A DNA stretch of 63,146 nt, counting the filler, from Malassezia furfur (lineage: Eukaryota), in the NCBI GenBank assembly GCA_052055015.1. It is 12 parts of 12 records of this genome, joined end to end, with 100 filler letters (N's around TTAATTAATTAA, not from the genome) between each part and the next. Parts side by side here need not be neighbours in the genome. Positions count along the whole stretch, not along the records: positions 15,952 to 21,165 come from JBQJIT010000621.1; 11 more parts are not named here. One strand, written 5' to 3'. The translations under genes and the position numbers were made by a program. Positions 1,546 to 19,237 of the stretch are shown piece after piece; position 1 is the stretch's first letter; each line of letters starts with the position of its first letter. The notes beneath the pieces were generated by a model that made no database searches, was not told the DNA's origin, and saw nothing but the letters and a program-made list of their open reading frames with translations.

Positions 1546-4500
1546 CTATACATCGTGCGTCGCGGGCCCGCCCCACTTGAGGTCGCGCAAACGTAAATCG
1601 ACGATCTCCTCGAGGGCCGCCTGGACGTCGGCGCCCGGCGCCAGGTGGTAGGATGCGTCCGAGCTCGGGCGCGCGCTCTCCGAGGCGATGCACGTGCGCG
1701 GCGCAAAGCCGAGGTCGAGCTGGTTCAGGTAGGCGACGAGGTGCTCGTCGGTGCCGATCTGCAGCACAAACGTGAACATGCCCTTTTGCGTGTCGTCCGC
1801 CTCGGTCTCTTCGTCGGCGTGGCGCGTCGGCAGCGCGCCCATCCCGTCGAGCGACAAGAGGTACTGCACCGCGGTGGTGCGGCTGACGTTCTTGGGCATG
1901 ATGGTGAAGCACGCGTGGCCGTGCAGGATGCGCAGCGAGAAGCGCTCGCCGAGCGAGTCGTAGATCAAGCTCTGCACTTCGGCGGCCTGCCGCCGCGCCC
2001 ACTGCCGCTCGGCGGCGGTCGAGTCGCGGAGGCGCTCACCAAAGTGCCACGTCACCGACGCGCGGTGCTCCTCGACCCAGGAGCCCGGCGTGCGCTCGGT
2101 GAAGTAGTCCAGGATTTCGAGCACGGGCGTGCGCCACTCCAAATTGAAGCCGTCCACGAGCGAGTGCCAGGCGCGCTGGTTGCAGTGCTGCACGTAGCAC
2201 CCGTTCTCCGCGATGATGCCCACCTGCGGCACGTCGGCGGCGAGGCGCTGCAGTGTGTGGGTGCCCTGCCCGCTCAGCACGTACACGTAGTTGCGTGTGT
2301 CGGTCGCGAGGCGCTGCAGCAGGTCGACGAGGTGCGGCGTGGGGTGGAAGCCGTGGCGGTGGAGGTGCGCCGCATCCTCCTCCACCAGCGTCCCCTCGAG
2401 GTCGACGAGGAGCAGGCGCGAGCGCGACGCGCGCCACTCGGACGCGAGCTGCGCGATCTCGAGGCGCGGGATAAACACCTTGTCGACGCTCGGCTGGCGC
2501 TGGTGCGCGCGCTCCAGCTGGCTCAGCACCGAGGTAATCCAGTGCTGCGCGGTCTGCGTCACGACGGTGCGGTGCAGGTCGTACCAGCGCTGCTCCATCT
2601 CCTTCTGAGGCATGGTGAGCGCCTGGTGGATCGCGCTCGAGACCTGGCGCGTGTTCCACGGGTTGATGCCGATGCACGCGCGCAGCGCCGCATAGGTCCC
2701 GGTGAACTCGGAGAGGATCAGCGGCCGCTTGCGCGCTTCCTGCGCAATGACGTACTCGTGCGACGTGAGGTTCATGCCCTCGCGCAAACTCGTCGCGAGG
2801 AACACGTCGGCCATCGTGAGCAGCGCGAGGTACTGCGAGAAGGTGAGCTCTTGCACGTGCAGGAAGACGACCGGCTGGTAGGTGAGCGAGCTGTGCTTGC
2901 GGTTGATGCGCGCGACGATGTCGGTCGCCTCGCCCACCTCGCGGTTCTCCTGGACGGTGGCGAGCGCCACCTGGATCAGCACCACGCGCCCGACCCACTC
3001 GGGGTGCTCGTCGAGGAACACCTCAAACGCCAGCAGCTTCTCGCGCACACCTTTGATCCAGTCGAGCTTGTCGCGGCCCACAATCACATGCTTCCCCGCG
3101 AAGCGCTCGTGCAGCCGCTCGACCCACTCGTGCACGTCGGGGTGCTCGCGCTTGCGGTTCAAACTGTGCACGTCGATCCCGATCGGGAACGGCGCCACGG
3201 TGACAAACGCGCGGCGCAGCTGGATGCCGCGCGGCGTCGCCTCGAGCTGGAGGATGCGGCTGATCGTCTGCCGGAAGTGCCGGCAAAAGTTGTGCGTCTG
3301 GAAGCCGATCAGGTCCGCACCGAGCATGCCGCGCAGCAGCTCCTCGCGCGTGCTCAGGCACCGGAAGATCTCGCTGGAGGGGAACGCGATGTGCACAAAC
3401 AGCCCGATCGACGCACGCGGCAGCCGCTCGCGCACCATGTGCGGGACGAGCAGCAGGTGGTAGTCCTGCACCCACACCACGTCGCCCTCCTCGTACACCT
3501 CGACGATGCGCTCGGCAAACCGCCGGTTCACCTCGACGTACGCACGGAAGGCGCGGTCCTCGGAGGCCAGGCCCCGGGCGTTCGGCAGCGTGTAGTGGAA
3601 CGTGGGCCAGAGGATCTGCTTGCAGTAGTGGTGGTAGCTGTTGACGTAGTCTTCGTCCTTCAGCCACACGGGCACACACTCGCGCTCGGCACGCGCGCGC
3701 GCGTCAATTTCGTGGCGCAGCGGCGTCGGCACCCAGTCCATCTCGATGCCGAGCGTGCCGATGTACAGCTTGCCGCTGGGGAACAGGTCGTCACCCACAC
3801 TGTTCACCGCATTGATCAGGCCGTAGTTCGCGCCAGGGTTCGGCACAAAGGTGTACGGCCGCTTCCCTTCCACGTCCTCGACCGGCGGCACGTGCGACGA
3901 GCTCGAGGACCGCTTCGGGTGGCCCCGCAGCGACGCACGCCGCAGCTGCGAACCACGCCGCTGCATCGTGCCCGAGGCGGTCGTCTCGCCGACGCTGTCC
4001 AGCCGGTAGCGCCGCGCACGCCGCGCCCGCACCGTATCCTTGTCGTCGTGCGCTCCGCTCAAAGGCGCGCCTTCGGGCTCCTCGGTGACGTGCGGCGCAT
4101 CGCCTTCGTGCGCATCGTGCGTAGACGTCGCTTCCACGGCGCCCCCCGCCATCTGCGCCGGCGCACTGCTCGTCTGCGCGGGGCTCTCGGCACGTCCGCC
4201 GCGCTGTGCAAGGTGCTCGGGCGCCGCACGCAGCGCAACATCCTCGCCGTCCTGCGCGCCCGACCACCCGGACGCCAGCTCGGGGCGGTCGATCAGCAGC
4301 GGCGTCGGATGCCCCCGCCCGACCTGCCCGGGCGGCGCAGGGGTCACCGACCCGGCACCGAACGGGTTCTGCTCTTGGAACGCGGGCGTCGCCGAGGTCG
4401 ACGGGTGCTGCTTGGTGGCCAGGTCCGAGATGATGCTCGCGGGCGTCGTCGCCTTCGCATCGCGCAGCAGGTGCGGCGTCGGCATGCGGCCAGCGTCGGC

Positions 4501-15951: not shown

Positions 15952-17111
15952 TGCACCGCGCGCCGCCGTCGCCCGCGGCGCGCACGTCGCCGCTGCCGCC
16001 CGCGGAGCGCGAGGTGCGCATCGGCATGAGCGGCCTGCGCAACTTTGGCAACACGTGCTACATGAATGCGACGCTGCAGTGCCTGAGTGCGACGGTGGTG
16101 CTGTCGCGCTACATGCTGGACGGCACGTTTTCGAAGGCGATCAACGTGCACAACCCGCTCGGGACGCGCGGGGCGCTTGCCGAGGCGTACGCGCAGCTGC
16201 TGCGTGCGCTGTGGTCGCAGCAGTTTGCGACGCTGTCGCCGCGCACGTTCCGCGAGGCGATTGCGCGCTTTGCGCCCGCGTTCGGCACGCCCGACCAGCA
16301 GGACAGCCAGGAGTTCCTCACGTTCCTGCTGGACGGGCTGCACGAGGACCTGAACCTCGTGCAGCAGCGCCCGCCGGCGATCGAGCTCGGCGAGGCGCAG
16401 CAGGCGGAGCTGGAGCGGCTCCCGCCGCAGCTCGCGAGCGTCGCGGAGTGGAGCATGTACCGGCGGCGCAACGACAGCATCGTGGTGGACGCGTTCCAGG
16501 GGCAGCTGCGCAACCAGCTGCGGTGCCTGTCGTGCGGCCACACGTCGACGACGCACAACGCCTTCCTGTCGCTGTCGCTGCCGGTGGCGCACGGGCGCGG
16601 CGTGTCGTCGACGACGCTGCTGCAGTGCCTCGACCTGTTCGTCCGCGAGGAGATCCTCGAGAAGAGCAACGCGTGGAACTGCCCGCGGTGCAAGAAGCCG
16701 CGGCGCGCGACGAAGCGGCTGAGCCTGTCGCGCCTGCCGCCGATCCTCGTGGTGCACCTGAAGCGCTTCACGTACAAGGGCCCCGCGACGCACAAGATCG
16801 ACACGCCCGTGCACTTCCCCACGACGGGCCTCGACCTGTCGAACTACATGCCGCCGCCGCTCCCGCCGGGCACCGCCGTGCAGGGCATCCCGGCGAGCGA
16901 GAGCCAGCGCCCGCCGTACGTGTACGACCTGTACGCGGCGACGCACCACTTCGGCACGCTCGCCTCGGGGCACTACACGGCGTCGGTCAAGAACCAGTCG
17001 ACGTGGTTCTACTGCGACGACGCGCGCATCACGCCCGACGACCCCGCGCGCCTCCAGAGCCGCTCGCCGTACGTGCTCTTTTTCCGCCGCCGGCCCCGTA
17101 GCCCTAGCTGA
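15952..17111 (+). CDS. DOA4: Ubiquitin C-terminal hydrolase Doa4/Ubp5 (USP8-like), 5'-truncated
   Basis: Cys box GLRNFGNTCYMN, QQDSQEF, LDGLHEDLN, His box HFGTLASGHYTA. Confidence 0.87.
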
Positions 17112-17122
17112 CTAAGCGCACC

Positions 17123-18073
17123 ATGCTCTCCTGGCAAGGCGTGCGCGCCGCGTACCGTGCGCAGGTCGCGCGGCGCCCGACGCTCTTCTACGGCGTGCCG
17201 TTCGTCACGACGATCGTCGTCGGCTCGTTTGCGCTCGCGCAGCTCACGCAGATCCGCTACACACAGCACAGCGAGCGCCACCGCGCCGTGTCGCAGGAAG
17301 AACAGCTCCGCCTCAAGCACGACCGCAAGCGCCTCGACATCCGCGAAGAGTACTTCAAGCTCATGGCCAAGGACGACAAGCTCGGCGACTGGGAGCCCAA
17401 GCGCGTCGAGCGGCCCGCGGGCATGCCAGAGTGGGGCGGCATGCCCCAGGCTCCCCCGCCGGGCAAGGAGGCCGTCGACGCCGACCTCACGCCCAACTCG
17501 TCCTCGTCGTTCTTTGCGCGCCGCACCGCGCACGCAGAGGAGCGCCCACAGGGCGAGGAGGACACACACGCCCCGCCGCCCGCCGCGCGCAAACCCGCCG
17601 TGGTGCTGGGGCCAGACGGCAAGCCGTGCCGCGCGTGCAATGCGCGCGTCGCGTTCAGCGCCGCGATGCGCGCCCAGCCCCGCACTGCGCCCGCCAAGCC
17701 GCCGCAGGACGCGTGCCCGCCCGACATCGAGGAGCTCGGGCGCAGCACATGGACCTTCCTGCACAGCGCCGCGGCCTACTTCCCCGACGCGCCGAGCGCC
17801 GAGCAAAAGCACGCGATGCAGGCGCTGCTCGATGCGCTGCCGCTCGTGTACCCGTGCGCGACGTGCGCCGAAGAGCTGCGCGAAGAGTACGCGCGGCAGC
17901 CGCCGACCGCGCGCGTCGATGCGGTCGAGAGCGCCACGACGCTCCAGGCGTACGTGTGTACGCTGCACAACGAGGTCAATGCGCGCCTCGGCAAGCCGCT
18001 CTGGGACTGTGCGGACCGCGCACGGCTGCGTCACCGGTGGTACGAGCCGGAGGACGAGAGCGCGTGTGTGTAG
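17123..18073 (+). CDS. Cox16-Erv1 fusion protein (cytochrome c oxidase assembly factor + FAD-linked sulfhydryl oxidase)
   Basis: aa 1-105 is Cox16-like (PTLFYGVPFVTTIVVGSFALAQLTQIRY, DIREEYFKL, DWEPKRVERP). aa ~160-316 is Erv1-like (GKPCRAC, CPPDIEELGRSTWTFLH, YPCATCA, CTLHNEVNARLGKPLWDC). No stop or consensus intron lies between them. Confidence 0.88.
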   Translation: MLSWQGVRAAYRAQVARRPTLFYGVPFVTTIVVGSFALAQLTQIRYTQHSERHRAVSQEEQLRLKHDRKRLDIREEYFKLMAKDDKLGDWEPKRVERPAGMPEWGGMPQAPPPGKEAVDADLTPNSSSSFFARRTAHAEERPQGEEDTHAPPPAARKPAVVLGPDGKPCRACNARVAFSAAMRAQPRTAPAKPPQDACPPDIEELGRSTWTFLHSAAAYFPDAPSAEQKHAMQALLDALPLVYPCATCAEELREEYARQPPTARVDAVESATTLQAYVCTLHNEVNARLGKPLWDCADRARLRHRWYEPEDESACV

Positions 18074-18307: not shown

Positions 18308-19237
18308 TCACGCGTCGGCGGGCGCCTCGCGGTCGTAGGTGCGCGGCGCACGCCCGGGCGACGCATCGCGCCGCGGCGCACGGTCGTAGCGCGGGCGGTC
18401 GTAGCCGCCGCGCTCGCGGCCGACGTAGCCACGGGCGCGGTCGTACGGGCGGTCGCGGCGCGGGGGGCCGTCGCGGCGTTTCGGCGGGCCGAGGTACTGC
18501 CCCGGCGTCGGCACACGCGCACGCGCACGGCGCGCGACCTGCACCGAGATCGCGCGGTCGTGCAGCACGTGCCCGTTGAGCGCCTCGACCGCCTTCGCCG
18601 CGTCGTCCACCTCGGCAAACGTCACGAACCCAAACCCACGTGGCTCCTGCGAGTGGGGGTCGCGCATGACCTGCGCCTGGACGAGCGTGCCGAACGGCGC
18701 AAAGAGCGCCTCGAGGTCCGCGTCCTGCGTCTCGCGCGCAAGCGACGACACGTGCAGGTTGTTGCCGGGGTTCGGATCGTCGTCGTCCTGCGGCGCGCGG
18801 CGCGGCGCGTCGTAGTCGCGCCGGTCGCCGCGGCGGTCGCGGAAGCGGTCGTCGCGCGGCCGGTCGTCGCGGTAGCGGTCGCGCGGCCGGTCGTTGTCGC
18901 GGAAACGGTCGCGCGGCCGGTCGTCATCGCGGTAGCGGTCGCGCGGCCGGTCGTCGTCGCGCTCGTAGCGGTCGTAGCGCGGGCGGTCGTCGCGCGGGCG
19001 GTCGTCGCGCTCGTAGCGGTCGTCCCGGGGCCGGTCGTCCCGGGGCCGGTCGTAGCGCTCGCTGCGATAGCCGCCGCGATAGCGGTCGCGATCGTCGCGC
19101 GGCGCGTCGTAGCGGTCGCGCGCATAGCGTGCGTCGTCACGGTGTCCACCGTCGTCGCGTGCACCCGCATCGCGCGCCTCGGGCGCATCCGCGCGCACGT
19201 CGCGCACCTCGTCCGCCTCGCGTGCTTCGTCCTGCAT
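18308..19237 (-). CDS. Tra2-like RRM RNA-binding protein with RD/RY-rich repeats
   Basis: NPGNNLHVSSL (RNP2), RGFGFVTF (RNP1), ARRARARVPTPGQYLGP. Confidence 0.85.
   Translation of the reverse strand: MQDEAREADEVRDVRADAPEARDAGARDDGGHRDDARYARDRYDAPRDDRDRYRGGYRSERYDRPRDDRPRDDRYERDDRPRDDRPRYDRYERDDDRPRDRYRDDDRPRDRFRDNDRPRDRYRDDRPRDDRFRDRRGDRRDYDAPRRAPQDDDDPNPGNNLHVSSLARETQDADLEALFAPFGTLVQAQVMRDPHSQEPRGFGFVTFAEVDDAAKAVEALNGHVLHDRAISVQVARRARARVPTPGQYLGPPKRRDGPPRRDRPYDRARGYVGRERGGYDRPRYDRAPRRDASPGRAPRTYDREAPADA

Follow-up and report, generated by a model that had tools for sequence, protein, structure and literature searches.

The mitochondrial disulfide relay depends on Erv1 as its essential oxidase, and COX16 is an inner-membrane complex IV assembly factor that acts on COX2 metallation and assembly, its exact molecular job still being vague. 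Yeast Mia40 carries an N-terminal inner-membrane anchor, and Maxfield and colleagues reportedly engineered an inner-membrane-tethered Cox17 in 2004. The available part of PMC8452992 places Erv1 in the IMS, where it re-oxidises Mia40 and passes electrons to cytochrome c/COX, its own import normally being Mia40-dependent. Human COX16 has its C-terminus in the IMS, according to the accessible portion of PMC5809144. The two proteins are listed separately in PMC7050145, and a full-text search of the openly accessible literature returned no paper describing or discussing a Cox16-Erv1 fusion. Here we analyse such a fusion in a 63,146-nucleotide stretch of Malassezia furfur DNA (the window). It combines two known families in an arrangement undescribed in the papers found and is not a new kind of system.

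A Cox16-Erv1 fusion gene in Malassezia

The preliminary description of this locus had reported an uninterrupted 316-aa ORF in which a complete Cox16 is joined to a complete Erv1. ORF scanning and translation confirm a single plus-strand frame from ATG to TAG without an internal stop, and Pfam profiles recover both halves within it. COX16 (PF14138) matches residues 21–100 over model positions 1–79 of 79 with 94.4 bits (cut-off 27), and Evr1_Alr (PF04777) matches residues 207–306 with 88 bits (cut-off 27.6, E 5.5e-25). The protein is identical at 315 of 316 residues to P0002, an independently assembled cluster of 10 member sequences, and is 91% identical to P0003 across its full length. The DNA is 67% GC and long chance ORFs are common, including ones that overlap the fusion ORF; the meaning of the latter thus rests on its family matches and its conservation. 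When the whole 63-kb window was searched, no COX16 or Erv1 match was found besides the fusion gene. The features of the locus, in window positions, are:

16026..17111, + strand: ubiquitin C-terminal hydrolase (UCH), upstream neighbour (Pfam UCH, E 3.5e-65)
17123..18073, + strand: Cox16-Erv1 fusion CDS, single exon, 316 aa plus TAG (ORF, Pfam and P0002 match)
17123..17179, + strand: basic N-terminal segment, residues 1–19 (net charge +4, zero acidic residues)
17180..17248, + strand: single predicted transmembrane helix, residues 20–42 (Kyte-Doolittle, AF2, invariant G24/P26/F27)
17183..17422, + strand: COX16 domain (PF14138), residues 21–100 (Pfam E 5.3e-27)
17387..17437, + strand: end of the COX16 module, D-W-E-P-K-R-V-x-R-P-x-G-x-P-E-W-G, residues 89–105 (invariant W90, E91, P92, R94, R97, P98)
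17438..17602, + strand: linker, residues 106–160, COX16 C-terminal tail plus Erv1 N-terminal tail (predicted disordered)
17603..17713, + strand: Erv1 shuttle arm, residues 161–197, with the CxxC C169 (17627-17629) and C172 (17636-17638)
17714..18070, + strand: Erv1/ALR FAD-domain core, residues 198–316 (Pfam, PDB matches, AF2, invariant columns)
17855-17857 and 17864-17866, + strand: active-site C245/C248 (conserved in at least 90% of 29 fused proteins)
17957-17959 and 18008-18010, + strand: structural C279/C296, Cx16C (invariant in 29/29)
17714-17716 and 18065-18067, + strand: extra conserved pair C198/C315 (invariant in 29/29)

The Cox16 half has the layout of the family, with one predicted transmembrane helix near the N-terminus and, after it, a conserved charged helix (residues 73–86 in the AF2 model). 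Kyte-Doolittle values in 19-residue windows are highest for windows starting at residues 20–24, and residues 20–42 form the sole strong hydrophobic stretch. The AF2 model, built with a 29-sequence alignment (mean pLDDT 71.7), has confident helices at residues 4–66 and 73–86, with block pLDDT values of 84–92 for the helix over residues 19–66. Residues 1–19 presumably form a matrix-side or targeting segment. The Cox16 motifs of the preliminary description, EEYFKL (residues 75–80) and DWEPKRVERP (residues 89–98), are both present, and the D-W-E-P...P-E-W-G motif also occurs in stand-alone fungal COX16 proteins. In our conservation set of 29 fused proteins from three classes (10 Malassezia rows and 19 others), G24, P26, F27, D72, R74–Y77, W90–P92, R94, R97 and P98 are invariant throughout. 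By analogy with human COX16, the fusion would be an inner-membrane protein whose C-terminus faces the IMS.

The Erv1 half contains the mitochondrial Erv1/ALR-type shuttle motif GPDGKPCRAC, and invariant positions in all 29 fused proteins comprise G163, D165, G166, K167, P168, C169, C172, F178 and A181 in the shuttle arm and C198, P199, D201, W210, H214, C279, H282, N283, C296, W306 and C315 in the core. C245/C248 aligns with the C-E-E-C motif of ALR. All three cysteine motifs named in the preliminary description are thus found: CRAC (C169/C172), CATC (C245/C248) and Cx16C (C279/C296). The additional pair C198/C315 would correspond to the inter-subunit disulfide of ALR. Sequence matches in the PDB include ALR (3mbg, E 5.1e-27) and yeast Erv1 (4e0i, E 3.4e-22); they settle the question of fold, and the Erv1 half should accordingly adopt a helical-bundle, FAD-binding architecture. 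The AF2 model of the core has pLDDT values of 88–98 over residues 201–300, with five helices over residues 200–289. Known Erv1/ALR enzymes are free, soluble and devoid of a membrane anchor, whereas here a 160-aa Cox16 module with a predicted transmembrane helix precedes the oxidase.

The UCH stop codon lies 11 bp ahead of the fusion ATG, and UCH is found upstream of the fusion in all five Malassezia-like metagenome loci (L001–L005). So short a gap (window 17109-17122 together with the stop codon) implies either that the fusion promoter lies inside the UCH gene or that both genes are co-transcribed. The 9-mer TGACTAAGC overlaps the UCH stop; it has a single match in the window, with at least one match in 14 of 100 shuffles. 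L001, L003 and L004 (only ∼60% protein identity) have it in the corresponding position, L005 does not, and it may act as a conserved element of the terminator, the promoter or the 5'-UTR. Downstream, 234 bp separate the fusion stop codon from that of a convergent ORF (18308-19237, minus strand, 309 aa), which is rich in R-D/R-D-D-R repeats; these flank a segment that, judged by eye, resembles an RNA-recognition motif (GFGFVTF).

The linker between the two halves

AF2 returned pLDDT values below 50 over residues 126–157 and no confident structure at residues 106–157 and 185–191. GC content by codon position in the linker (residues 101–160) is 0.75/0.62/0.88, compared with 0.70/0.42/0.93 and 0.71/0.51/0.90 in the two domains; downstream intergenic DNA gives 0.72/0.79/0.78, that is, no coding periodicity. 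Sites resembling splice donors (GT[AG]NG[TC]) are absent from 17423-17602; the only ones lie at 17141, at 17157 and beyond, starting from 17854, in line with the earlier claim that no donor separates the halves. Linker identity to the window protein is 43–87% in Malassezia, similar to the domains, and 8–25% outside. The PEWG motif is also found in free basidiomycete COX16 proteins, whose chains end 10–30 aa past it, and free Erv1 proteins begin 3–45 aa ahead of the GPDGKPC motif. The linker of ∼55 aa is thus roughly as long as both native tails combined, which suggests a simple head-to-tail join. A linker patch, SSFFARR..AEERP, is conserved in Malassezia and elsewhere partly recognisable as [IVL]-x-A-E. 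That AEERP is the old COX16 C-terminus, of the (E/D)DRWV type seen in Tremellomycetes-type proteins, is no more than a tentative lead: MAFFT did not align the two, and a resemblance is visible only for 'AEGRW' of Tilletia.

A sister-species metagenome locus (L004) contains a 22-nt intron in the COX16 part, directly after EEYF (4209-4230, GTACGT...CTAAC...CAG). Its removal yields EEYF followed by KLQSRADELDDWEP, and the frame is then open through the linker to the Erv1 C-terminus. The intron size fits the M. sympodialis mean of 30 bp given in Table 2 of PMC5389616, in the part of that paper available. As the window gene lacks this intron, it was lost or gained within Malassezia. An intron in the COX16 part also explains why automatic ORF calls include 'Erv1-only' frames of 226–273 aa that start with MYVA... 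or MPEWGG. In P0013 an intron similar to that of L004 appears to be read through in frame.

Gene-dense Malassezia genomes do yield transcript-fusion artefacts between neighbours, as described in the portion of PMC5389616 at hand, and two adjacent genes could in principle have been merged by a sequencing or assembly error, or by a missed intron or stop. Against this, the same open frame recurs in independent assemblies and species, and both halves lie in tandem in 8 of 80 metagenome loci, of which five are Malassezia-like and three are from further away, the remaining loci holding Erv1 only (13) or COX16 only (59). Together with the coding periodicity of the linker and its lack of donor sites, these observations leave an artefact essentially excluded, and the fusion is almost certainly one translated gene.

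The preliminary description had also raised internal initiation at MPEWGG, by which an internal transcription or translation start at M101 or M107 would add a free, soluble Erv1 to the full-length product. M101 is kept in 9 of 10 Malassezia rows, and automatic callers report Erv1-only ORFs that begin there, such as P0036. Yet none of the 19 fused rows from outside Malassezia has M101, and M107 occurs in just 3 of all 29 rows, so the proposal is not supported as a general mechanism. M101 lies inside the conserved Cox16 G-x-P-E-W-G motif and its conservation needs no second explanation, and introns and alternative start calls account for the short ORFs. We regard a second, internally initiated product as highly improbable.

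Somewhat less remote, though still unlikely, is a processed polyprotein, in which the Cox16 anchor would serve import and sorting only and an IMS-side cut in the linker would release a membrane Cox16 and a soluble Erv1. Composite fungal mitochondrial precursors such as Arg5,6, Rsm22-Cox11, Etp1 and Atp25 are split after import, according to the accessible text of PMC8734313, and a tethered mature form is therefore not assured here. The predicted disorder of the linker would suit such a cut, and the SSFFARR..AEERP patch could be a recognition site. The cleavage shown in the available part of PMC8734313 is, however, carried out by the matrix peptidase MPP, and an N-in/C-out anchor would put the linker in the IMS, beyond its reach. 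We identified no cleavage motif in the linker, and with 8–25% identity outside Malassezia any cleavage site would have to be loosely defined.

Distribution and origin of the fusion

A homologue search gave 166 matches among 3528 candidates. Both Pfam domains are present in 50 of the 120 homologues listed, and in 31 of 31 named Ustilaginomycotina records among the matches listed. These records come from Malassezia (4 records), the Ustilago/Sporisorium/Pseudozyma group, Thecaphora, Testicularia, Violaceomyces, Tilletia, Exobasidium, Meira, Tilletiopsis, Ceraceosorus, Tilletiaria, Jaminaea, Parajaminaea and Sympodiomycopsis. Eight of the fused genera, placed by a taxonomy check, span Malasseziomycetes, Ustilaginomycetes and Exobasidiomycetes; the others we take to belong to Ustilaginomycotina as well. 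Fused proteins include UMAG_05870 of U. maydis (338 aa) and XP_027483034 of M. restricta (313 aa, on 670 contigs). In the ESM Atlas, every member (100%) of an 80-member cluster has both domains, and the metagenome locus L006, a possible transcript, is a 1295-bp contig, without a poly(A) tail, that is identical to the fused ORF of Tilletia maclaganii. In a motif count over 121 proteins (P0001–P0121), W-E-P-x-R lies upstream of the Erv1 shuttle motif in 73, the PEWG tail alone is found in 6, 39 are Erv1-only and 3 are of other kinds.

Public databases (NCBI/UniProt) carry the architecture under automatic names ('thiol oxidase', 'related to ERV1', 'Sulfhydryl oxidase'), and the 'thiol oxidase' records supply the sole COX16 homologue found in named Ustilaginomycotina records, among the matches listed. 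The novelty assumed at the outset is thus weakened, all three sampled Ustilaginomycotina classes being represented by fused proteins in NCBI/UniProt; what stands is that no describing paper was found. Two entries have unexpected labels. P0084, a 199-aa JGI ORF with the Erv1 part only, bears the label 'cytochrome c oxidase assembly protein subunit 16', apparently inherited from fused relatives, an annotation drift caused by the fusion. P0083, labelled as from the fern Adiantum nelumboides, starts with MDDWEPKR and lies beside Meira miltonrushii (P0042) in the Erv1 tree with a branch length of 0.039; it is probably a fungal sequence (endophyte or contaminant) in a plant assembly.

A quick IQ-TREE analysis (LG+G4; 121 rows and 191 columns) of the Erv1 part places all 35 genuinely stand-alone rows together on one side of a branch (SH-aLRT 95), consistent with the fusion having originated once. 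These rows represent Agaricomycotina and Ascomycota, plus one row each from Mucoromycota and Chlamydomonas, and the fused form falls in a single clade. Seven Erv1-only ORFs nest among the fused rows. Four of them (P0079, P0078, P0082 and P0054) can be judged and start inside the linker or the COX16 tail, and on this basis we read all seven as probable ORF-caller fragments.

The preliminary description had asked about stand-alone copies; among the matches listed, our homologue searches yielded neither a free COX16 nor a free Erv1 for any named Ustilaginomycotina species. A search for short stand-alone Erv1 gave 14 matches, the named ones from Agaricomycotina. The only Malassezia-like candidate among them, P0305 (outside the tree), was rejected as the M. 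restricta fused protein started at VLGPDG. Two short COX16 matches near the query were likewise set aside, both being truncated variants of the M. restricta-type fused protein. An exhaustive HMMER search with the COX16 part returned 375 matches, 150 of them listed. We read seven listed matches of at least 200 aa (seven further ones of 203–223 aa stood outside this reading): P0003, P0044 and P0164 are fusions, P0151 reads as a stand-alone COX16, and P0140, P0241 and P0243 carry unrelated or garbled extensions. P0140 (405 aa) has an ascomycete-type COX16 N-terminus and then a long unrelated C-terminal region; it represents a further fusion of COX16 or else a gene model merged from two.

Among the matches listed, named free COX16 proteins come from Calocera, Naganishia, Naematelia, Cutaneotrichosporon and Flagelloscypha, and further ones from Orbiliomycetes, Mucoromycota, Zoopagomycota and chytrids. 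The closest stand-alone COX16 proteins in this set are P0124 and P0125 (56% identity), and the closest named ones are those of Calocera viscosa and Naganishia albida. The partner gene was found in the flanks of 0 of 59 COX16-only and 0 of 13 Erv1-only metagenome loci, where flanks of at least 1 kb were available downstream for 40 of the 59 and upstream for 8 of the 13. There is thus no sign that the two genes were neighbours in non-fused fungi, and on these flanks we set ancestral adjacency aside. The fusion would have arisen once, before the Ustilaginomycotina radiation, by joining the C-terminal tail of Cox16 to the N-terminal tail of Erv1; with Pucciniomycotina outside the sample, the event is dated only as later than the split from Agaricomycotina. 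Taken together, the Cox16-Erv1 fusion is real, ancient and under constraint.

Proposed role and comparison with known systems

We propose that one nuclear gene yields one precursor, in which a complete Cox16 is joined head-to-tail to a complete Erv1/ALR sulfhydryl oxidase. The basic N-terminus and the one transmembrane helix would anchor the protein in the inner membrane, followed by the conserved IMS segment of Cox16 and the disordered tail of ∼55 aa. This tail would place the FAD-binding four-helix core, together with the shuttle CxxC of Erv1, in the IMS. Neither ancestral activity would be lost: Cox16 would act in Cox2/complex IV assembly, and Erv1 would re-oxidise Mia40 and donate electrons to cytochrome c. 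The difference would lie in delivery: instead of being imported as a soluble client of Mia40, Erv1 would reach the inner membrane by means of the Cox16 anchor and be retained there by it. The C-terminus of human COX16 lies in the IMS and Erv1 works there (accessible parts of PMC5809144 and PMC8452992), and the topology that the preliminary description had called compatible is therefore coherent. As a whole, an uncleaved, inner-membrane-anchored Erv1 with both ancestral functions retained is the likely state of the protein.

A Rosetta-stone reading goes further: Cox16 would position Erv1 at the Cox2/CuA maturation module, where Erv1 would either set the redox state of the Sco1, Cox2 and Coa6 cysteines or drain electrons directly into cytochrome c and complex IV. 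We consider this extension doubtful. If true, physical cooperation would also be expected between the free forms of Cox16 and Erv1 in yeast and humans, and Ustilaginomycotina Erv1 would be imported by a presequence/stop-transfer route, independently of Mia40.

An anchored Erv1 would amount to a natural experiment, with a permanently membrane-tethered oxidase whose predicted import need not use Mia40. That the fusion is kept across a whole fungal subphylum hints at Cox2/CuA assembly as the step where the disulfide relay and Cox16 come together, and the fusion is a clean shared derived character for Ustilaginomycotina. This group includes the tractable U. maydis and the skin commensals and pathogens of the genus Malassezia, and an essential fungal-specific architecture in the U. 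maydis/Malassezia lineage could be of practical interest. Should the join be a tolerated accident of compatible topology, it would still provide a useful annotation fix.

The fusion resembles the fungal tandem precursors (Arg5,6; Rsm22-Cox11 and Etp1 of Schizosaccharomyces pombe; Atp25) covered in the available text of PMC8734313, in that one ORF encodes two complete proteins, some of these precursors likewise involving COX assembly factors. It differs from them in the expected position of the junction, which should lie in the IMS and not in the matrix; the known precursors, in the same portion of PMC8734313, are split after import, with MPP shown to be involved.

With yeast Erv1 and ALR/GFER, residues ∼161–316 share the shuttle CxxC, the active-site CxxC, the Cx16C and the helical core, and in the alignment C198 and C315 match the CPPD... 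and C-terminal cysteines of ALR. The known Erv1/ALR proteins are free (153–203 aa in stand-alone fungal examples), whereas the fusion adds a complete Cox16 in 160 N-terminal residues. With free COX16 the protein shares a full-length Pfam match, the single transmembrane helix and the REEY and WEPxR..RP..PEWG motifs; the free chain stops 10–30 aa after PEWG, while the fusion chain continues into Erv1. As in anchored Mia40 or the reported tethered Cox17, an IMS thiol or copper-handling protein would be held by an N-terminal inner-membrane anchor, but in the fusion this anchor is a second conserved functional protein rather than a simple signal-anchor.
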